DNA from: an uncultured Eubacteriales bacterium
Lineage (GTDB): Bacteria > Bacillota > Clostridia > Oscillospirales > Acutalibacteraceae
Reading direction: 5' to 3'
DNA length: 25,704 nt
Assembly: GCA_964471035.1 (NCBI GenBank)
Contig: CAYYFY010000001.1
Location: 1 to 25,704, forward strand
Under the pieces are notes generated by a model. It was not told the DNA's origin and did no database searches. It saw only the letters and a program-made list of their open reading frames with translations. The stretch's first letter is position 1, and each line of letters opens with the position of its first letter. A program made the position numbers and the translations under genes. Of this stretch, positions 1-17,378 are shown in pieces.

Positions 1-5
1 TCACA

Positions 6-38
6 GAACCGTACGTGCGGTTTTCCCGCATACGGCTC
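6..38 (-). ncRNA. Group II intron catalytic domain V
   Basis: Minus strand GAGCCGTATGCGGGAAAACCGCACGTACGGTTC: canonical hairpin with AGC triad and AC bulge. Confidence 0.95.
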
Positions 39-39
39 T

Positions 40-1320
40 TCAAACCAACTTTGGTTTCCAGTTCCAGATGTCTTTCGTTAGGTGTGGTTTTTTCACATAG
101 AAATCCCATATCCTTTGGAACTTATCCCATTTCATGCTCCGTTTTTGATGTCTGCGGTTAAGCGTTCGATAGGTCGTATACCTTACGTATATCCAAAAGT
201 TTTCAACCATATGAAAATTGCCACTGATACCATAGTAGTTACAATGCCCTTGAAGCGATAACTGAATGTGTTTCATAGTTTCACTGACCGGCTTGTGCAT
301 GTTTTCATGCAACCACGCCTTGGCACTCTGTTTCTTTGATTTCAATTTCTTCTTGCTTGTTCGCACTCCCAGCCGATATTTTCCTTCTCTGGTCTGCGTA
401 TTGAAGAATGTAAACCCCAAGAAATCAAAGTCCTCTTTTGTCCCTTTGAACCGTCCAATTGGAAGAATGCGCGTTTTGTCCTCCGCTACTTCCAGCCCAA
501 ACTTGCCGAGCCGTGCTATCAAGGCTTCCATAACCTCCAGCGCTTCGTTTTCATACTGAAACATCAGCAGAAAATCGTCTGCGTACCGCACATAATACAC
601 TTCACCTTTGCACTGTTTCCGCAGCACCTTTTCGTACCACAAATCAAGCACATAGTGCAGATACACATTCGCCAGCACCGGCGAAATCTGTCCACCCTGC
701 GGTGTCCCTTTGTCGCTTTCTTTCCGTTCTGCTCCCTCCATTATGCCCGCGATGAGAAATCGCTTCACATAACGCAGGAAATTCCTGTCCGCGATGTCGT
801 TCTCAAGAAATTTCATCAGCCAATCATGGTCTACATTATCAAAGAACCCTTTGATGTCGGCTTCCAGCACATAGTTGACCTTCTTTGTCATAATGGTCTG
901 ATTGATTTCCCGTACCACCATGTGCGCATTCCGTTCGGGTCTGAATCCGTAGGAGCAATCCAGAAACCGCTCCTCGTAGATGTCATTCAGCAATCCAGCC
1001 ATGACGCTCTGTACCAGTCTGTCTTCGTATGCGGGTATCCCCAGCGGACGCATTTTTCCGTTAGCCTTTGGAATGTATGCCCTGCGTACGGGTTGCGGCT
1101 TGTAGCTGAATCGCTTCATTCGGGCGATTAAATCCGCCACGTTCTCGTCCAGCTTCTCCCCGTACTCCGCCTTAGTCATTCCATCTATGCCGACCGCCTT
1201 GTTTTGTACCTGCTTTCTGTGTGCTTCCTTGACACTTGTCGCATTGACACGATTCATCAGTGTTTCCAGCTTCGCATAGGTTCTGGACTGATACCTTATT
1301 TCCTTCAGTTCTTGTTCCAC
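40..1320 (-). CDS. ltrA: Group II intron reverse transcriptase/maturase (RT + X domain, no HNH endonuclease), about 426 aa
   Basis: Motifs AVGIDG, YIPKANGKMRPLGIP, SYGFRP, DIKGFFD, GTPQGGQISPVLAN, YVRYADDF, FDFLGF, GHCNYYG. ORF track starts at 1410, but the GTG at 1320 follows AGGAGG (1331-1336, 10-nt spacer) and 1410 lies in intron domain III. Stop TGA at 40-42 abuts domain V. Confidence 0.93.
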   Translation of the reverse strand: MEQELKEIRYQSRTYAKLETLMNRVNATSVKEAHRKQVQNKAVGIDGMTKAEYGEKLDENVADLIARMKRFSYKPQPVRRAYIPKANGKMRPLGIPAYEDRLVQSVMAGLLNDIYEERFLDCSYGFRPERNAHMVVREINQTIMTKKVNYVLEADIKGFFDNVDHDWLMKFLENDIADRNFLRYVKRFLIAGIMEGAERKESDKGTPQGGQISPVLANVYLHYVLDLWYEKVLRKQCKGEVYYVRYADDFLLMFQYENEALEVMEALIARLGKFGLEVAEDKTRILPIGRFKGTKEDFDFLGFTFFNTQTREGKYRLGVRTSKKKLKSKKQSAKAWLHENMHKPVSETMKHIQLSLQGHCNYYGISGNFHMVENFWIYVRYTTYRTLNRRHQKRSMKWDKFQRIWDFYVKKPHLTKDIWNWKPKLV

Positions 1321-1629
1321 GTACCCGTAACCTCCTGTGTTACCCGTGCTTTCCTTTGGAAAACGCTGATTTGTTGCCCCCTTCGCTCCACCGGCTTTCA
1401 CCGGCTTCACCGCTACTATGAGGCAATCCGACTTCTGACAAGCCTTCGTTTCGCGCTTAGTTTACAATACCTTGCTTGAATCTACCGCTCTCATTGCGGA
1501 TTTCACCGCTTTGCGGAGCCTGTCAGACCTCCCAGGTATGCGTGTATTACTCTTGTGCGCTCGCCACGCTCTATGGACCCCGACGGATTCTCACCAACCT
1601 CGCGTTTACGGTCGGTTCTTTCTGCCTGC

Positions 1630-1645
1630 TGTGAAGGAGAACACA
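1630..1645 (-). other. Intron EBS1 stem-loop (loop UUCUCCUU; EBS1 = CUCCUU at 1634-1639) pairing with IBS1 AAGGAG at 1838-1843
   Basis: Minus strand GCC-GA-TGTG-[TTCTCCTT]-CACA-GCA-GGC in the 3' part of domain I. Perfect 6/6 complement of the six exon bases just upstream of GTGCG. Confidence 0.85.
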
Positions 1646-1845
1646 TCGGCTTCCGTTCTTTATGTCTTACGGGGCTGAATCGCTTCACGCTTTCGCATTG
1701 CGGCTCTCGCACTCCCTGTCCTACGCTTAAACCTCACCTCACGGCTTCGGCTCCAAGGACTCAGTACCGACTGGTCGCTAACCTTTGTCGGGTCAGGTCT
1801 CTCACCCAACTATATTACACGCACCGAACTGGCGCACCTCCTTTG

Positions 1846-1893
1846 TTATTAATACCAAGCACTCGACGTGGAACGAGATCGTCAGATTGATAA
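1846..1893. other. att-like pseudo-palindrome containing a second copy of the rlmD 3' tail (candidate attR or displaced native rlmD end)
   Basis: 19-bp imperfect inverted arms (1846-1864 and 1875-1893, 12/19) around a 10-bp spacer. 1843-1870 matches rlmD 3201-3228 at 21/28 nt. Minus strand reads H-V-E-C-L-V-L-I-T-K-E versus rlmD H-M-E-C-V-V-L-M-S-R-V. Confidence 0.75.
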
Positions 1894-1901
1894 TAAAACC
1901 C

Positions 1902-2021
1902 TACGAACCGCTTGTCCGGCGGTTGATTGAAAAGGTCACCGTTTACAGTGGCAAACAAGTTGCCGCGGACAAATTCATCGTGGAATTTAAGTCCGGCGTG
2001 ACGGTGGAGGTGAAGGAATAA
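1902..2021 (+). pseudogene. C-terminal fragment of a large serine recombinase (site-specific integrase)
   Basis: YEPLVRRLIEKVTVY...DKFIVEFKSGVTVEVKE* resembles the typical C-terminus of Clostridia ICE/IME serine recombinases as I recall it. No catalytic N-terminus or start codon; it begins just after the att-like site. Confidence 0.75.
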
Positions 2022-2029
2022 GAATGATA

Positions 2030-2073
2030 AAAGCAAAGTCGTTTGGGGATTTATATATTCTGGACTTTGCTTT
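2030..2073. terminator. Putative bidirectional terminator between the convergent recombinase relic and methyltransferase
   Basis: Perfect 11-bp inverted repeat AAAGCAAAGTC / GACTTTGCTTT with a 22-nt spacer and A/T-rich flanks. Confidence 0.5.
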
Positions 2074-2114
2074 ATTTTATATTAAATTTTCGCTAATATT
2101 AGAATTTTTCGGTA

Positions 2115-2867
2115 TTACTTCTTTATCGCCTTTATAACAAAACACGTTTCTAAAAAATCAGCAGCGTCGCTATTGTTGTCATAACCGTCTTCAAAAAATC
2201 CCGTTATGCAAAAACCACTCCTAGTTAGTTCGCCTATATAATTATCTAAAGTATGTCCATATTCAATCCAATCCCCTTGATTATCATGCTCATAGGATTT
2301 ATATGGTAGTTTATTGCACGCTATATAATAGTCCCCATCCTGAATATATTCACACAAATAATTTGCTGGATTAGGGGCACACAATATGAAACTACCGCCT
2401 TTTTTTAGGATACGACAACATTCTTGATAAACAGGTGTGACATTCGGGACATAGAACAAAGAGGGTGGATTTATAATAATATCAAAACACTCATCGGAAA
2501 ATCTCGACATATCGCACATATTTCCCTGCTCTATTTTAATTGAGAGATTTTCTTTTTCAACGACAGCTTTATCACGAAGCAGCATATTTTTTGATAGGTC
2601 TAACACCGTTACATTAGCGCCCGCAGCTGCGCATAGAGGAGCTTGTTGTCCCCCGGCTCCCGCAAGGCAGAGTAGTTTGATATCCTTCATTTTTTCCGGG
2701 AACCAACTTCTCGGTAACAGCTTATTACCAGAAATACTGATTTCGAAAATGCCATTCCTTGCTTTTTCGATTTCTGCATGGGTTACAGGGATTGACCATG
2801 AAACATTTTGCTCCACAAGATTATCAATGTTTTTTTCTACTTTTTCAAATATGTTACTATCATTCAT
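2115..2867 (-). CDS. Class I SAM-dependent methyltransferase, 250 aa
   Basis: LLCLAGAGGQQ (motif I variant), VTVLDLS, IEQGNMCDMS, FDIII, ILKKGG. SD AAGGAG at 2878-2883. Visibly AT-rich compared with the flanks. Confidence 0.88.
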   Translation of the reverse strand: MNDSNIFEKVEKNIDNLVEQNVSWSIPVTHAEIEKARNGIFEISISGNKLLPRSWFPEKMKDIKLLCLAGAGGQQAPLCAAAGANVTVLDLSKNMLLRDKAVVEKENLSIKIEQGNMCDMSRFSDECFDIIINPPSLFYVPNVTPVYQECCRILKKGGSFILCAPNPANYLCEYIQDGDYYIACNKLPYKSYEHDNQGDWIEYGHTLDNYIGELTRSGFCITGFFEDGYDNNSDAADFLETCFVIKAIKK

Positions 2868-2990
2868 CGTATAATATCTCCTTAATAAATTTTTTAATCG
2901 TTGTAATAGCGGTATACGTTACAACAACATCCAACCTGTTCACACACACCGGCGAAAAAAAACTTCCAAGTCGTCCACACGAGAACCTCT

Positions 2991-3058
2991 AACATCTATC
3001 CTGTATACTCGTCGAAGGGTATTATCAATCCTGTGCACTCGCGAAGCGGTGACATCAA
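2991..3058 (+). repeat. Two degenerate 30-bp tandem units plus the start of a third, resembling att arms
   Basis: AACATCTATCCTGTATACTCGTCGAAGGGT / ATTATCAATCCTGTGCACTCGCGAAGCGGT / GACATCAA. Similar to ACATCAATACCACGCACTC at 3204-3222. Confidence 0.7.
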
Positions 3059-3189
3059 AATCGTTCTGTCACAAGGAAAAACGCTTCTTTGGACTTGTTC
3101 CCACGGGGCAAAATTATTTGATTTTCAGACTGTGGTTTTCGACGTGAAAAAGCGAAAATCCCTTTGTTTCAAGGCGTTTTTCACCCTCT

Positions 3190-4539
3190 TCAATTTACCC
3201 TTGACATCAATACCACGCACTCCATATGCGGTGTGCGGGGGAACATATCCACCGGAGCGGCGCGCTTGACCGTATAACCCAGCTCCGTGAGGATTGCGCA
3301 GTCGCGGGCGAGCGTTGCCGGGTCACAGGAGACGTAGACAATTTTTTCGGGGTTCATGGCGGCTATGGTTTCGAGCAGTTCTTTGTCGCAGCCCTTTCTG
3401 GGCGGGTCTAAAATGACGGTGTCGGGCGTTGTGCCCTCCTCCTCCAGTGTTTTTGCCGCTACTGCGGCGTCGGCGCAGAGGAAGCGGGCGTTTTTGATGC
3501 CATTTATGGCGGCGTTTTCTAAGGCGTCCCTGACGGCGTCGGGGACGATCTCGACGCCGATGAGTTGTTTGACGCCGCCTGCCATCGACAGACCGATGGT
3601 GCCGGCGCCGCAGTAGAGGTCTAAAAGGGTGTCGGTCGGTTTAGGGGCGGCAAACGCGGCGGCTGTTTTATATAGCCGTTCGGCTTGTTCGTGATTGACC
3701 TGATAAAACGAGAGCGGCGAGAGCTTGATGCGCAGACCGCACAGCTCGTCGGTGATAAAGCCGTCGCCGTACAAAGTTTTACAGCGCGCGCCGAGCACGA
3801 CGTTGGTGTCGTCGGTATTGGTGTTTAATAGGAGCGTCTTAAAGCCGCTTAAGTCTTTCAGCGTTTCGAGTAAACTCTGACCGTGCAAAAGGTCCTTGCC
3901 GTTTATGACGACGCAGACCATCAGCTCGCCCGTGGCAAACGCCTTACGCAGGTAGAGGTGCCGGATAAGCCCTCTGCCTGTCGTTTCGTCATAAACGCTG
4001 ACGTTGTGTTTCTTTATGAATGCTTTCAGCAGCTTAGCCGCCTGTGCAAATTCGGGCGGTTGGAGGGCGCAGCCGCATGAGTCGATCACGCGGTGGCTGC
4101 GCGGCGCGTAGAAGCCGATCTTGACCTCGTTGTTCTCAACGGCGACGGGGTATTGCGCCTTGTTGCGGTAGCCGTCTATGCGCTCTGCGCCGAGGATCGG
4201 CTCAAGGGGGACGTCCATATGGGAAAGACGCCTGAACGCTTCTTTAACGCGTTTTTCCTTATGCGCAAGCTCCGCGTCATAGGAGATGTGCCTAAAAGCG
4301 CAGCCGCCGCACTGTGAAAAGACGGGGCAATCCGGTTTTATCCTGTCCTTTGACGGCGCGGCGATTTCCATACATTTACCAATCGCGTAATGTGGTTTAA
4401 TTTTGATGATACGGCAACGAATTGTGTCGCCTATGGCGGTGTTCGGAACGAATACGGCAAGACCGTCAACCCGTCCGACGCCGTTGCCCTCGGAGGTATA
4501 ATCTTCTATAATTAAGGGTATTTCGTCATTTTTTTGCAT
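3190..4539 (-). CDS. rlmD: 23S rRNA (uracil-1939-C5)-methyltransferase RlmD (RumA/TrmA family, TRAM domain)
   Basis: TRAM N-terminus, Fe-S motif CPVFSQCGGC, LDLYCGAGTIG, ILDPPRKG, YVSCDPATLARD, DMFPRT. Confidence 0.95.
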   Translation of the reverse strand: MQKNDEIPLIIEDYTSEGNGVGRVDGLAVFVPNTAIGDTIRCRIIKIKPHYAIGKCMEIAAPSKDRIKPDCPVFSQCGGCAFRHISYDAELAHKEKRVKEAFRRLSHMDVPLEPILGAERIDGYRNKAQYPVAVENNEVKIGFYAPRSHRVIDSCGCALQPPEFAQAAKLLKAFIKKHNVSVYDETTGRGLIRHLYLRKAFATGELMVCVVINGKDLLHGQSLLETLKDLSGFKTLLLNTNTDDTNVVLGARCKTLYGDGFITDELCGLRIKLSPLSFYQVNHEQAERLYKTAAAFAAPKPTDTLLDLYCGAGTIGLSMAGGVKQLIGVEIVPDAVRDALENAAINGIKNARFLCADAAVAAKTLEEEGTTPDTVILDPPRKGCDKELLETIAAMNPEKIVYVSCDPATLARDCAILTELGYTVKRAAPVDMFPRTPHMECVVLMSRVN

Positions 4540-6342: not shown

Positions 6343-8552
6343 CGCGATGCTCCTTTTTCAATCAATTCACAAGTGCCGTCAATAGCTGTATACCATACGT
6401 TTTCGGTCAGATACAGGGCTTTGGTATAATATTTTGTTCCGGATTTGCTGAATCCTCCGGTGATGACGATCCGTTTCGGAACACAGTGCTGTAGGTTGAG
6501 CGGCAGACCGCCGGAACAGATCAGCGCGTCGAATGTCCCGAACGATGCCGTCATGACCTTCATATCGTTTTCAGCCGACAGGGAAACAAGGTATCGTCTG
6601 CCGCCTGAGTCAATTATAACACATTTCGCGGCGTCTGTATCGTTATAGTATAAATTTATTTCGTTCCATAGGAAATACCGCGCCGTGGGACAGACCTCCA
6701 CGGTCGTTCCGAATAAAGCGGTATTTTCACGGTATACGGCGGCAGCCGTGAAAACCGTTTTTGGCGCGTAGGTCTCTACAAGCGTCTTGTAGCTTTCGGC
6801 ACAAAAGCTGCCGGGTATGACGAGCAGCAGGTCAAGGTCGGTCGTCGGAAGAGCGGGGACGCTGCCCGCTACAGCTCTCTCAAAGCCCGCGCTGTCACGC
6901 GGACAGGCAATCAGCGCGTAGTGGCTGCCGCTCTGCAGTACGATTACCGGCGTACCGGCGGCTTTCAGTACGTGTACGCGTATGTTTTTATAAGAGGGCA
7001 GCAGCGCGCCGATGTTTCCGGCGACAAAAAACAAAAGGCAGAGTATGGATACCGCCGCGAGCGGCAGGCGCGTTTTTCTGCGTATCCATATCACCCACGC
7101 CGCCAGCATTAAAAGCAGCGTCGATACAAACCAGAACGCCCAGACAGTTTCATCGACGGGCAAAGCGGCGTACCGTAAGGAGCCGAGCTTATTAACGCAG
7201 TCGAGCACAAGCCCCGAAAACAGATTGCACAGGGCAAACCAGAGGTTGGCGACGGGTTTTAGCAGGCTTACATAGGAAAGAAGCACGCCCGTGCCGCCGA
7301 ACACCGTAATCAGAGACGCTAAGCTCATGACCGCGAGATTCGTCACCGGCGCGATGAGCGAGACGCGCCCGAACGCCTCCACCATGACCGGCAGCGTAAA
7401 AATAAAGGCGGTCAGCGTGATGATGACGATGTCGCCGGTGTAGCGGACAAAGCGTTTTATGGGCACAAAACGCAATGACGCCGTTTTCGCCGCGAAGCCG
7501 CTCATCAGCGCCTGTCCTAAACTCACGATGCCCAGCGTCGCGGTGACCGAAAGCTGAAAGCCTATTGACAGCACGGCAAACGGATTGACGCAGGTAATCG
7601 CGCAAACCGCTAAGCCCAGCGAGTTGAGCGCGTCGCCGCGCCTTTTAAAAAACGGCGCGCACAGGATGACGGCAAGCATCGCCGAGGCGCGTAAAATCGA
7701 CGGGCTAAAGCCCGTAAGCGCCGAAAAGAACACGAGAAATCCCATGGAAAGAGTATTGGCTAGCCTGCCTCCCAAGCCGAAAACCGTCAAAAAGGCGATG
7801 ATAAACGCCGTCCACAGCGACACGTTGAAGCCCGATACCGCGAGCAGGTGCGCCGCACCGCTATTGTTGAACGCCGCGGCTGTCTTTGCGGAGATGTAGC
7901 CGGTATCGCCCATCACCATGGCGATGACTACACCCGCGCGGTCGCCGCTCAAATAGGACTGCGCCGTCTCGATGATGTTTTCACGCAGCTTCAGTATATA
8001 CCAGAACGGCGTTTTCGAACAGGAGAAGAGCACCTGCGGCGTATCCTGTGCGTAAGCCGCCAGATAAATTTTACGCGCCAAAAAACTTTCTGAAATATCA
8101 CCTTTCTCGTTTTTGGGAACAAAAACAGCCGCGTCGTTGACCGAAATGCAGTCAAAATATGTACACTCGAGCGGCTCTTCGGTATAATACAGGAGCTTTT
8201 GCTTTGTAAACTCCTCACCGATGGAAAACGTTTTGATCTCGTAGCCGTAGCCGTTGTCGTATGTGTACGGCAAAGAGACGACCTTGCCCGTAAAAGCCGT
8301 CGCTCCGTCGAAGCGCGCCGCCGGCATATACGAAAACCGCCAGAACAGCAAGAAAAGTACCGCCGACAGCAGGACGGCGCCTGCGGCAAGCGGTAATTCA
8401 AAAACAGATCTTAGCCTTTTAGCGACAATATAGATAATTAGTGCCACCACAGAAGCGCCCAAAGCGGCATACGCCGCAACAAAGCCGAGCTTACAGCACA
8501 AAAACAGAACGGCGGCGAATGAAAAACCGAATACGCACATCGGTCTCGCCAA
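6315..8552 (-). CDS. comEC: ComEC/Rec2 DNA-uptake channel with a degenerate C-terminal metallo-beta-lactamase-like domain
   Basis: Many TM segments, HLLAVSGFNV, PSILRASAM, SIGFQLSVTATLGI, NLAVMSL. TTG start with GAGGTGA SD; comEC-holA synteny. Confidence 0.88.
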   Translation of the reverse strand: MARPMCVFGFSFAAVLFLCCKLGFVAAYAALGASVVALIIYIVAKRLRSVFELPLAAGAVLLSAVLFLLFWRFSYMPAARFDGATAFTGKVVSLPYTYDNGYGYEIKTFSIGEEFTKQKLLYYTEEPLECTYFDCISVNDAAVFVPKNEKGDISESFLARKIYLAAYAQDTPQVLFSCSKTPFWYILKLRENIIETAQSYLSGDRAGVVIAMVMGDTGYISAKTAAAFNNSGAAHLLAVSGFNVSLWTAFIIAFLTVFGLGGRLANTLSMGFLVFFSALTGFSPSILRASAMLAVILCAPFFKRRGDALNSLGLAVCAITCVNPFAVLSIGFQLSVTATLGIVSLGQALMSGFAAKTASLRFVPIKRFVRYTGDIVIITLTAFIFTLPVMVEAFGRVSLIAPVTNLAVMSLASLITVFGGTGVLLSYVSLLKPVANLWFALCNLFSGLVLDCVNKLGSLRYAALPVDETVWAFWFVSTLLLMLAAWVIWIRRKTRLPLAAVSILCLLFFVAGNIGALLPSYKNIRVHVLKAAGTPVIVLQSGSHYALIACPRDSAGFERAVAGSVPALPTTDLDLLLVIPGSFCAESYKTLVETYAPKTVFTAAAVYRENTALFGTTVEVCPTARYFLWNEINLYYNDTDAAKCVIIDSGGRRYLVSLSAENDMKVMTASFGTFDALICSGGLPLNLQHCVPKRIVITGGFSKSGTKYYTKALYLTENVWYTAIDGTCELIEKGASRWDASTKTN

Positions 8553-14836: not shown

Positions 14837-15835
14837 TTATCCGGAAATATTCACAATCCCGCGGCATTTCGGAAACTGCGAGCAGCCCCAGAAAGAACTC
14901 CCAACGTTGCCGCCCTTTGAGGCGGTTCGCTTGACCATCGGCGCGCCGCATTTCGGGCAAAGAGGCGTTTCGGATATATACGGTTTGGCGGGAACAGACA
15001 CAGAATTCGCGGCAGGCGTAACCGATTCTTCGGAAGTCACAGCGACAGTTTGAAACGCGGGTTTCGGACTATCCTGCTCTGCGGTGGTGTTCGTTCTGTA
15101 CTTTGCAAAATAGTCTGTTTTACACTCTGTATGTCTTTTTAAAAAGAACTTCGCCCAGCTTTCAATGTCTTTTTCATTTGCGGTAACGCCTCCGGGCTCG
15201 GCATTTATTTTATTGATATAGGAAATCAACTGATCCGCGCGGATAACACGGCTTTTAACGTCTTTAGGAGCATATTTCGCATTTAAAACCGTTTTTGGAT
15301 TGGCAAGCACAACGATATCGCGGTAATTATCCGAAAAGTTCCGATCAACCAAGGCTCTGACAAGGGCGTTGCTCTGCGCGTCGAGAACCATCGCTTTAAG
15401 TAAATCAAGATGCCTTTTACACTGCGTTATCGGAGAATAAATACCTTCCTTTTTATAACCGAAATTTCGGACGAAACTACCCGTATTATCAATCGCAATA
15501 TCTCCGTAAAGGTTTTTACATTCGACAATAAAAACACGCTTGATTGTAACCAAGAGATAATCTATTTGCGCGGTAAGTCCGGCGTGCTCAAAATATAAAT
15601 CATGCAGCACATACATCGGAATATGGCTGTTTTTCAACTCATACATTAAGGCATCTTCGCCGTAAATTCCCGCTTTTATTGCGGCGATATCATTTTCAAT
15701 CGCTTTTTTTATTTTTTCGTCGGTTTCCAATACCAACAGTTTCTCGAGTTCTTCAAGCTGCGCTTTAGCATTACTGTCCTCTTTAAAAATAACCGGTTCC
15801 TTGAATTTTGAAAATAATGCCATAATACGATTCAC
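14837..15835 (-). CDS. NERD-domain nuclease-like protein with C-terminal topoisomerase-type C4 zinc ribbon
   Basis: GIYGE..QIDYLLV..FIVECKN (PD-(D/E)XK-like NERD core); CPKCGAPMVKR..FWGCSQFPKC. Confidence 0.88.
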   Translation of the reverse strand: MNRIMALFSKFKEPVIFKEDSNAKAQLEELEKLLVLETDEKIKKAIENDIAAIKAGIYGEDALMYELKNSHIPMYVLHDLYFEHAGLTAQIDYLLVTIKRVFIVECKNLYGDIAIDNTGSFVRNFGYKKEGIYSPITQCKRHLDLLKAMVLDAQSNALVRALVDRNFSDNYRDIVVLANPKTVLNAKYAPKDVKSRVIRADQLISYINKINAEPGGVTANEKDIESWAKFFLKRHTECKTDYFAKYRTNTTAEQDSPKPAFQTVAVTSEESVTPAANSVSVPAKPYISETPLCPKCGAPMVKRTASKGGNVGSSFWGCSQFPKCRGIVNISG

Positions 15836-15852
15836 CTCTCATTGCGTAAATG

Positions 15853-15882
15853 AGTATACCATACCCTCCTTCGTTTTGTAAA
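15853..15882 (-). promoter_or_regulatory. Putative promoter of the NERD gene
   Basis: TTTACA, 18 nt, TATACT with extended TG; SD GAGGTG upstream of the ATG. Confidence 0.5.
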
Positions 15883-15918
15883 GTTTTTCTGTACCGAACT
15901 ATTCGCCGCATGAAAAAG

Positions 15919-15947
15919 TTGTCAAAGCACGTGATCTGTGATAAGAT
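15919..15947 (+). promoter_or_regulatory. Putative promoter of the symporter operon
   Basis: TTGTCA, 17 nt, TAAGAT with extended TG; SD AGGAGG at 15965-15970. Confidence 0.55.
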
Positions 15948-15977
15948 AATTTTATTCGGTATACAGGAGGTTACAAT

Positions 15978-17378
15978 GTGAAACGACTTCCCGAAAACAA
16001 CAAGATCACGCTCAGCGAATACATAGGCTACGGCATCGGGCCTATAGGCAAAAACCTGATGGCGCCCCTCGTCAACGGCGAGTACCTGCCGAACTACTTT
16101 CGGACATATCTGAAGATCAACAACGGCTTTCTCGCCGTGATGCTCTTCGCCTCGAAAATCTGGGACGGCGCCAACGACCTGATGATGGGCGCTATTATCG
16201 ACCACACCGATTCCAAATGGGGTAAATTCCGCCCGTGGATCTTCTTCGGAGCCATTTTTAACGCCATGACCTCGGTGATGATCTATTTCAACCCGAATCT
16301 TTCGGGCGTCGGGATTTATGTCTATATCACGCTGCTGTATCTTTTGTGCGACGCCACGTTTACGATGATCGACGTCGGCTACTGGTCGATGATCCCCGCC
16401 ATGACGCTTGACGCGAAGGAACGCGACAAGCTCTCCATTCTGCCGCGGGTCACAGGCGCGCTCGGGGGGCTGTTCAGCGCGTTCACTTTAAATATCGTGG
16501 GCGCTCTCGGCAAAGGGGACACCCAGAAGGGGTATATCCGTTTTGCGCTGATTGCCGCCGTCGTCTATATCACGACCTCTACAATCTGCGCCGCGATGAC
16601 GAAGGAGCGGGTCGTGCTCGCGCCCTCGCAGAAGGAGCCCTTCTCATTCATACGCGCCGCCAGGATACTGTTTCGAAACGATCAGGCTTTGGTCGTCGTT
16701 GCCGTCATGGTGCTGTTCAACGCCGCATCGTGTATGCACGGGGGAACGATGATGTACTATTTTACCAATGTGCTGCTCAAACCGAAATCCTACGGCTTTT
16801 ATTCCATCACATCGGGAATCGTCGGCGGGATCGGGCTGTTCGGCGTGCCGATGGCTTCGAAAAAATTCGAGAGAAACAAGGTCTACCTTGCGGCGTATCT
16901 GCTCCCCTGCCTCGGCTATCTGCTGATGATCCTTCAGAACGCCGCCGCCCCAACTAACTTTATTTTCTTCGCGCTGTCGGGCATCATCCCCAGCGTCAGC
17001 TACGGCGCGATGAGTATGATGCAGAGCGTCATGCTCTCCGACGCCGTCGATTACGGGGAGTGGAAATACGGCGAGAGAAACGAGGGTATCATCTTCTCGA
17101 TGCTCACCTTCTTAAGCAAGATTTCAAACGGCATCAGCTATTTAATCCGGTATTCCTGCTTTGCCGCGGTGCGGTTCAACACGCAGGTCGGCGTGGCGAC
17201 GACGCCGGCGGCTGTCAGTATGATCAAATTCCTTCTGTTCTTCGTCCCGCCCGTTTTTCTTATCGGAGCTTTCGTTTTGCATAAGAAAAAGTTTAAACTC
17301 ACGCCCGCCTATATGTCGGACGTAACAGCCCAAATCAAGGAGCGGCGCGCGGCGCTAACGCCGAAAGGAGAAAACTGA
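15978..17378 (+). CDS. Glycoside-pentoside-hexuronide (MelB-like) cation symporter, MFS
   Basis: IWDGANDLMMGAIIDHTDSKWGKFRPW, YWSMIPAMT..ER, DAVDYGEWKYGERNEG; about 12 TM segments. Confidence 0.92.
   Translation: MKRLPENNKITLSEYIGYGIGPIGKNLMAPLVNGEYLPNYFRTYLKINNGFLAVMLFASKIWDGANDLMMGAIIDHTDSKWGKFRPWIFFGAIFNAMTSVMIYFNPNLSGVGIYVYITLLYLLCDATFTMIDVGYWSMIPAMTLDAKERDKLSILPRVTGALGGLFSAFTLNIVGALGKGDTQKGYIRFALIAAVVYITTSTICAAMTKERVVLAPSQKEPFSFIRAARILFRNDQALVVVAVMVLFNAASCMHGGTMMYYFTNVLLKPKSYGFYSITSGIVGGIGLFGVPMASKKFERNKVYLAAYLLPCLGYLLMILQNAAAPTNFIFFALSGIIPSVSYGAMSMMQSVMLSDAVDYGEWKYGERNEGIIFSMLTFLSKISNGISYLIRYSCFAAVRFNTQVGVATTPAAVSMIKFLLFFVPPVFLIGAFVLHKKKFKLTPAYMSDVTAQIKERRAALTPKGEN

Follow-up and report, generated by a model that had tools for sequence, protein, structure and literature searches.

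Three target specificities of bacterial group II introns are distinguished in a review from 2015, namely homing sites, terminators and attC sites. One lineage, the IIB1 introns of Michel et al. (2007), has been tied to the start and stop codons of protein genes and, according to the passage on it in PMC12584367, carries an insertion of 300-700 nucleotides (nt) near the 5' end/basal internal loop of domain I and has long and specific target sites, the groEL stop codon being an example. Here we describe a group II intron in a 25,704-nt stretch of DNA from an uncultured Eubacteriales bacterium (Acutalibacteraceae; contig CAYYFY010000001.1), which is referred to as the window. The intron is read on the minus strand and enters from the window's left edge. 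Comparison with related loci suggests that this copy is a member of a lineage specialised for insertion inside Shine-Dalgarno (SD) sequences, usually just behind a promoter, and we put the probability of this reading at roughly 0.8. No description of SD-targeting group II introns was found in the full-text literature that was searched (subscription literature lay outside that search), and the lineage, which appears to have been unrecognised previously, is proposed here.

The loop of exon-binding site 1 (EBS1) in the window copy reads UUCUCCUU at 1641-1634. Its core CUCCUU (1639-1634) is identical to the anti-SD core of 16S rRNA and forms 6/6 Watson-Crick pairs with AAGGAG (1843-1838), the intron-binding site 1 (IBS1) at the end of the 5' exon. 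The minus-strand 5' splice site falls between 1838 and 1837 (..CAAAGGAG/GTGCGCC.., where the slash marks the splice junction here and below), with GTGCG at 1837-1833, a wider context of ..AAUAACAAAGGAG/GUGCGCCAGUUCGG.. and an exon-intron junction sequence of AAAGGAGGTG. An initial annotation of this DNA had described EBS1 as an anti-SD mimic in perfect pairing with AAGGAG, an intron start at GTGCG and an SD-like junction; all of these sequence statements are correct on the minus strand, and the loop is placed both by Rfam and by the local fold. As EBS1/IBS1 pairing defines any group II intron, the pairing alone is unsurprising, and it was the SD identity of IBS1 that needed testing. The hexamer is also present at 2878-2883 (-), 6350-6355 (-) and 17365-17370 (+), exactly where the initial annotation had located it, and in total the window contains it 19 times, 9.3 being the expected number; 0 of 100 shuffles reached this count. 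This excess is ordinary SD enrichment, as SD usage predicts.

Related loci were collected by scans using the protein that the intron encodes (IEP), giving 159 (78 from genomes, 80 from metagenomes and one viral; individual loci are cited by L numbers), and the lineage was defined as those IEPs at least ~54% identical to the window protein. The 5' junctions were placed by a profile search with the first 300 nt of the window copy and the 3' junctions by the conserved intron end ..CUACUCGAC. The latter boundary was verified in L099 and L014, in which full-length RF00029 matches end exactly at this sequence, and in the relatives a covarying domain VI (D6) is present, with a bulged A seven nt before it. 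The distinct flanks comprised 87 5' flanks and 84 3' flanks, and 52 loci had both.

An SD core (at least 4 nt of it within the last 8 nt) is found at the 5' exon end in 74/87 flanks (85%), compared with 21% of control 8-mers from the same loci. The last four exon bases are GAGG in 42 of these flanks, GGTG in nine and GGGG in eight, with AGGA, AAGG and GGAG contributing 4-5 each. EBS1 changes with the exon end in a matched manner (CCUCC with GGAGG, CCUCAA with UUGAGG, CACCUC with GAGGUG and UCCUUU with AAAGGA). Among 34 relatives, cognate combinations give 5.4 paired bases versus 4.2 when permuted, and none of 5000 permutations reaches the cognate value. The registers of EBS1 (CCUCC, CUCCU and CACCU) all lie on the anti-SD, and EBS1 stays anti-SD-like across IEPs that diverge down to 54% identity. 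In the window copy it is shifted by one position relative to its termite-gut neighbours (GGAG/ and not GGAGG/), as it is in L007, L024 and L126. Judged from these pairings, EBS1 slides along the anti-SD yet remains on it.

The 3' flanks complete this pattern. The first ATG falls at +7 to +12 in 55/84 of them (65%) compared with 10% at random positions, and a start codon followed by an open reading frame (ORF) lies at +5 to +13 in 57/84. The +1 base is T in 52 of the 84, and the 3' exon begins with TGA in 27; as a rule, an actual gene, unrelated from site to site, has its start codon 7-10 nt further on. Once the exons are joined in silico, a stretch of 6 nt or more that runs across the ligation point and matches AGAAAGGAGGTGATC exactly is present in 30 of the 52 ligated junctions. 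The typical ligated site, GGAGG/TGAnnnnATG, is an extended SD complementary to the 3' tail of 16S rRNA, and the flanks of L013 (Bengtsoniella intestinalis BP47G), for example, predict the junction GGGG/AGAUAGACAUG. Of the downstream ORFs, ten were sampled, and each is of a different Pfam family (Table 1), so the sites are not one conserved homing site. The initial annotation had suggested tabulating EBS1 and insertion sites in homologous introns, and had regarded a variable EBS1, or sites not enriched at SD sequences, as signs against its proposal that the intron homes to ribosome-binding sites (RBSs). The tabulation favours that proposal in the figures for exon ends and start codons given above. 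EBS1 does vary, but it covaries with the exon end and the sites are SD-enriched, so the proposal withstands this comparison.

Intron-less alleles provide a direct view of the target. The Phd antitoxin encoded behind the L099 intron has homologs that are 91-94% identical, including the intron-less alleles L163-L170, of which three distinct loci were examined (L163-165, L166 and L168-170). These have the promoter region of L099 (TTGCAC-17-TATAAT with TGn) followed by an uninterrupted GAGGTGAT-N4-5-ATG, and their sites read ..GCGAGGTGATTGAGATG, ..GAGAGGTGATTGTATG and ..AGAGAGTGATTCTATG, while the occupied L099 reads ..CGTGGGG/intron/TGAGTTTATG. Because the SD is contiguous and the promoter the same in the intron-less alleles, the L099 intron lies inside an SD that existed before it, and the promoter is the older element. 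Precise excision from L099 is predicted to restore the SD 7-8 nt from the start codon, and the unoccupied site, as shown by these alleles, reads as a continuous extended SD, spacer and AUG (GGAGG/UGAnnnnAUG). Taken together, the flank statistics, the unrelated genes and the empty Phd sites support, at the level of the lineage, the earlier proposal of homing to RBSs; the accompanying idea that splicing restores the SD-to-start spacing is likewise supported at that level by the position of ATG and the contiguous SD of the intron-less alleles.

Beyond the SD, most sites share a further trait, and this promoter proximity is a strong feature that is absent from the initial annotation. At 64/83 sites (77%), a -10-like hexamer (agreeing with TATAAT in 5/6 positions or more, A2 and T6 among them) has its end 7-22 nt upstream of the junction with the intron, with 36 exact TATAAT hexamers and 31 preceded by TGn; most insertions fall 8-20 nt downstream of such a hexamer. 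In contrast, only 15/65 control SD-ATG-ORF sites in the same loci (23%) have such a hexamer, three of them exact (Fisher p = 4e-11). The gap between the -10 element and the splice site has a sharp lower edge and a mode of 10 nt, and several sites also have a -35 element at 17 nt. If transcription starts ~7 nt past the hexamer, the transcribed 5' exon would be hardly more than IBS1. Going by these flanks, the sites are promoter-proximal RBSs with very short leaders. Besides pairing by the EBS2 loop, described below, this proximity may equally well stem from entry of the intron into melted promoter DNA or from selection for expression.

The occupied genes are often the first in small autoregulated operons (L054, L082, L099, L111, L121, L136, L011, L112 and L138) and are of the Phd/YefM, RelB/DinJ and AbrB/MazE-type antitoxin and XRE-type regulator types, Pfam backing being available for L082 (RelB) and L099 (Phd) and the other seven assignments being read off the protein sequences. 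Antitoxin and regulator genes of this kind typically have promoters overlapping very short leaders.

The contribution of EBS2 is less clear. In the window copy, the loop at the EBS2 position forms at most three contiguous pairs with the 5' exon, in line with the earlier remark that no convincing EBS2/IBS2 pairing is present. Across the SD-inserted relatives, EBS2 pairing is statistically weak overall (cognate versus permuted exons, p = 0.04-0.07). The EBS2-position loop does contain an exact complement of TATAAT (GUUAUA or AUUAUA) in 24/74 cases compared with 2/74 when the loops are reversed, pairing of 6-8 nt with the -10 element is possible in, for example, L107, L101, L088, L114 and L036, and the pairing total exceeds that of shuffled loops (z = 5.2). 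However, besides the weak cognate test, reversed loops pair equally well overall and the spacing to IBS1 varies from 4 to ~14 nt. As such, EBS2 pairing with the -10 box is a lead and not a claim.

D6 of the SD-inserted relatives (for example, L014:2913-2976 and L099:1996-2062) carries in its distal part an extension that is conserved, GGCA-AG-CCUUUC..(variable hairpin)..GAAAGG-AG-UGUC, with the compensatory changes GACU/AGUC and CCUCUC/GAGAGG (here the slash separates paired strands). Its purine strand is SD-like (GAAAGGAGUG) and is paired to an anti-SD-like strand. The extension is absent or different in branches that are off SD sites (L004, L015, L017, L019, L020 and L066). The SD-like strand was considered as a normal SD for the 3' exon gene and rejected, being ~28 nt from the AUG and fully base-paired.

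The window copy itself contains the first 1837 nt of the intron, with ~84% DNA identity to L107, L081 and L082 over this full length; the window's left edge cuts it off before D6, the 3' splice site and the 3' exon. The features of a group II intron found in it are the GUGYG 5' end, domains I-IV, Domain V, an IEP with reverse transcriptase (RT) and maturase domains and the EBS1-IBS1 pairing (Table 1). The Domain V (D5) match exceeds the gathering score of RF00029. The D1-D4 model begins at intron nt 36, leaving 35 nt from the intron 5' end to its position 1, and a total of 427 nt lies upstream of the ORF within the intron. The YADD motif of the IEP is intact at residue 275, and its relatives in the PDB are group II intron RTs, all equidistant. 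No HNH endonuclease match was found in the Pfam scan of the IEP, and as the ORF stops 23 amino acids (aa) past GIIM, it has no DNA-binding/endonuclease domain (En-minus). The window from 1 to 1837 (-) is therefore best described as the greater part of a mobile group II intron that lacks an endonuclease and appears intact, the ribozyme of which seems IIB-like on account of its EBS2-type internal loop and its 34-nt D5 with a GAAA loop.

Table 1. Features of the window intron and its surroundings, with the gene families found behind related introns.
Feature	Position in window	Strand	Basis
Group II intron, D1 to D5, 5' 1837 nt	1..1837	-	GTGCG 5' end, Rfam RF02005 and RF00029 matches
Ribozyme domains D1-D4 core	1567..1802	-	RF02005 over the whole model (1-225) at 113.5 bits, E = 9e-32
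Domain V catalytic hairpin, GAAA loop	1..40	-	RF00029 over model positions 1-41 at 42.8 bits, marked as incomplete at 3' end
IEP, 456 aa, RT and maturase (X) domain	40..1410	-	Pfam RVT_1 8.7e-41, GIIM 4e-5
EBS1 hairpin GUG-UUCUCCUU-CAC	1631..1644	-	Rfam structure line (terminal hairpin carrying EBS1), local fold agrees
EBS2-position internal loop UAAGACAUAAAGA	1657..1669	-	Rfam alignment; longest run with 5' exon 3 nt
IBS1, AAGGAG (SD core), final six bases of 5' exon	1838..1843	-	Six Watson-Crick pairs with CUCCUU
Remaining 5' exon/upstream leader	1844..1902	-	Homology to syntenic L161/L162 begins at 1903 only
Serine-recombinase (integrase) C-terminal tail remnant	1903..2021	+	tblastn, small homologs, DNA identity to L161/L162
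Downstream gene families in relatives			Pfam: LepA, response regulator, SDR, dCMP deaminase, sigma factor, Rep initiator, Phd, RelB, MsrA, phosphoglucomutase (PGM)

The lineage comprises ~150 copies in Firmicutes of the gut, rumen and termite gut. The SD/ATG pattern spans the whole IEP cluster down to ~54% identity and is not seen in relatives at 48% or below. Many of the closest relatives (80-89% identical) come from termite-gut metagenomes, and the window IEP is nested among termite-gut copies of 83-88% identity, nearly all of which are at GAGG/ with ATG at +8. Sub-branches nested in this cluster (L015, L017, L019, L020, L066 and L159; also L004) occupy conventional homing sites; their EBS2/IBS2 pairing is clear, their introns start with GAGCG or TTGCG and the SD-like D6 helix is absent from them. 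The sites of L019 and L159 read GACGGTAGTA-TTGATG/TCAAG, with a 7-bp EBS2/IBS2 pairing (GGUAGUA-UUGAUG/; exon positions -13 to -7), and that of L004 reads ..TTTCTGGA/ACTTG.

Some contigs from isolates or metagenome-assembled genomes consist of intron sequence only. Those of L026 (Gudongella sp., 1898 nt, coverage 612), L038 and L002 have very high coverage and therefore point to many copies per genome that were collapsed by assemblers. L154 (Ga0099364_10238190, 1-2009) holds a head-to-tail intron junction at 1640/1641 (..CTACTCGAC/GAGCGCCAG..) with a terminal overlap of ~125 nt, which could be due to tandem copies, a circular DNA form or a repeat assembly artefact.

Upstream of the intron, 65 nt separate it from position 1903, exactly where a partly syntenic genome (L161/L162) begins to align with the window at 90% DNA identity. 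The leader contains TGGTATTAAT (1857-1848), an imperfect -10-like element, with no hexamer passing the -10 criterion within 22 nt. The sole coding homology near the junction is at 1903-2018 (+), which encodes the final ~38 residues of a serine-recombinase tail. An antisense insertion within a live serine-recombinase gene was considered, from a plus-strand frame at 1785-2021 and one tblastn hit of 93% coverage. It was rejected because nearly all matches are confined to aa 23-60 and come from the ends of recombinase genes of phages and plasmids, stand-alone homologs are remnants of 41-103 aa and DNA homology begins at 1903. Tail remnants of this type often survive as a 48-aa stand-alone 'integrase' ORF. 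The suggestion in the initial annotation that AAGGAG might belong to a displaced rlmD tail is ruled out, as rlmD ends at 3190.

Beyond the remnant, an 11-bp inverted repeat in 2030-2073 (AAAGCAAAGTC..22 nt..GACTTTGCTTT, then ATTTTAT) sits where the recombinase remnant and the methyltransferase gene converge; it probably represents a bidirectional terminator or else the junction of an old mobile element. Further into the window, 15835-15978 is a divergent intergenic region, with the large ORFs all on the minus strand to its left and all on the plus strand to its right. GC skew over the 25 kb gave no informative replication-strand orientation. The insertion site of the window copy is common to none of the related loci, and its 25-nt exon pattern was not found in metagenome or viral contigs, a megablast search against plasmids also being empty.

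Several observations limit the SD-insertion reading or weigh against it. The commonest register in the lineage is GGAGG/ and not the GGAG/ of the window copy, and exact-protein look-ups of the IEP, methyltransferase and RlmD, from which its 3' exon might have been recovered, matched nothing. It could be that the lineage does target SDs but that this copy is ectopic, sitting in an SD-like hexamer without a working RBS, with no start codon behind it and being silent or harmful instead of gene-sparing. In contrast to 77% of the relatives, no canonical -10 lies within 22 nt of the site, and the weak promoter-like site present ends 52 nt upstream. An EBS2 partner is lacking, and the degraded recombinase tail ~60 nt away marks an apparent mobile-element junction. 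Moreover, 27/84 of the relatives' 3' flanks (about one third) also have no start codon with ORF at +5 to +13. On the other hand, L007, with the same EBS1 and the same AAAGGAG/ exon end, has an ATG at +8, the nearest relatives are almost all at genuine RBSs and the end of a mobile element is the expected place for a first gene with its own promoter and SD. An ectopic position is unlikely, although it merits serious attention. A purely coincidental AAGGAG in an ordinary sequence-specific homing intron, unrelated to translation signals, is scarcely credible. Any 6-nt IBS1 is possible, AAGGAG is frequent in the window, and two nested sub-branches at non-SD sites, L004 (TCTGGA/) and L015, L017, L019 and L159 (TTGATG/ at the two best-matched sites), resemble classical homing introns with conserved sites and 5-7 bp of EBS2/IBS2 in L017, L019 and L159; however, this idea is already contradicted by the SD ends and ATG positions of the flanks and by the unrelated genes that they adjoin.

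The bias of the lineage could also have arisen after integration, as the enrichment for promoter-proximal RBSs could partly reflect post-insertion selection and not target choice. In its strong form, near-random insertion at short purine-rich sites followed by selection would account for most of the SD and promoter enrichment, with no dedicated recognition of RBSs. Recognition has no more than +1 and 4-6 bp of EBS1 to work with, the statistics of EBS2 pairing are weak, and the 17 other AAGGAG sites in the window are unoccupied, so the short EBS1 pairing cannot be the whole specificity. This explanation is nevertheless improbable, since sense-strand insertions within ORFs should also be splicable and tolerated and yet the sites cluster in a 6-nt window before start codons. 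The anti-SD-like EBS1 of IEPs diverged to 54%, the continuation of the SD by the TGA preference at +1 to +3 and the co-occurrence of the D6 extension with SD sites, with its loss in the branches that left them, further argue against it. The introns might also be kept by their hosts as regulators that split the SD from the AUG and gate translation by splicing, their mobility being secondary or lost. Splicing is required to unite the SD and AUG, EBS1 would sequester the SD in the precursor and many hosts are regulators or antitoxins heading small operons. We regard this as quite doubtful. The introns have intact RT ORFs, and their spread over 84-87 different sites in unrelated genes at 80-89% intron identity is a sign of recent transposition; in addition, alleles of the same gene without the intron coexist, and no gene family is preferred.

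For a member of an SD-inserting lineage, the following cycle can be proposed. The excised lariat-RT particle would reverse-splice into the sense DNA strand at an SD, where the short EBS1 and +1 pairings would stand in for the 3' tail of 16S rRNA. As the intron has no endonuclease, it would follow other En-minus introns in using a nascent strand at the replication fork to prime cDNA synthesis. Transcription of the intron would come from the neighbouring host promoter. In the precursor, EBS1 would sequester the SD, and 1.9 kb would separate it from the AUG, so that the host gene would depend for its translation on splicing, which would re-join SD and start codon and let the gene be translated once more. 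Additional components are possible, such as an additional reading of the promoter by the EBS2 loop GUUAUA or, alternatively, access to single-stranded DNA of the open complex, and mimicry of the SD:anti-SD (or IBS1:EBS1) duplex by a helix of D6. A more tentative reading, to which we would give slightly less than even odds, is that the lineage adds a fourth natural class of target to homing sites, terminators and attC; its EBSs would mimic the 16S 3' tail to find the promoter-proximal RBS of any gene, and each gene so occupied would need splicing for its translation.

If correct, SDs read through an anti-SD-like EBS1 would represent a new and very abundant class of 'safe harbour' for introns, in which a retroelement is transcribed from host promoters and host translation can be repaired by splicing. 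Dozens of unrelated genes, including those for LepA, sigma factors, antitoxins and Rep proteins, would be translated subject to ribozyme activity. For annotation, genes behind such introns seem to have no RBS. The lineage may also suggest targetron-type tools aimed at translation starts, and the sharply defined distance to the -10 elements invites the question whether promoter DNA is exploited by En-minus introns.

Among known systems, the lineage shares with the IIB1 introns of Michel et al. an association of bacterial group II introns with translation signals. Set against the description of these in PMC12584367, the window intron differs in having 35 nt before the D1 model in place of the 300-700 nt insertion, in an ORF without an En domain and in targeting the SD itself, in many unrelated genes. 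Class C (IIC) introns, going by the review text, are likewise En-minus and gene-sparing with a generic, abundant expression signal as target, and they also use a short IBS1 pairing with little or no EBS2. However, they insert behind intrinsic terminators or attC, whereas here the SD before a gene is entered, at the opposite end of the transcription unit. The relatives' flanks are promoter and SD, not hairpins; at the window site, a fold of 70 nt gave no stable G+C-rich hairpin abutting the intron, and no minus-strand terminator was found in 1800-3300. Furthermore, IBS1 is 4-6 nt here, the ribozyme appears IIB-like, the EBS2-type loop is used in some branches and splicing would directly affect translation of the host gene.

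RmInt1, an En-minus intron of class D, is similar in its RT-maturase without DNA-binding and endonuclease domains and in its presumed use of nascent-strand primers at the replication fork, but recognises one long site in an insertion sequence through EBS1, EBS2 and EBS3, whereas a degenerate functional motif is recognised here. Finally, Lee and co-workers are reported to have described in 2010 a ribozyme of Clostridioides difficile, controlled by cyclic di-GMP (c-di-GMP), in which an RBS is assembled by splicing. That ribozyme belongs to group I and is a single domesticated regulatory locus that is no retroelement and involves no target mimicry, but it resembles the introns proposed here in that self-splicing reportedly puts the SD and the start codon within working distance of each other.

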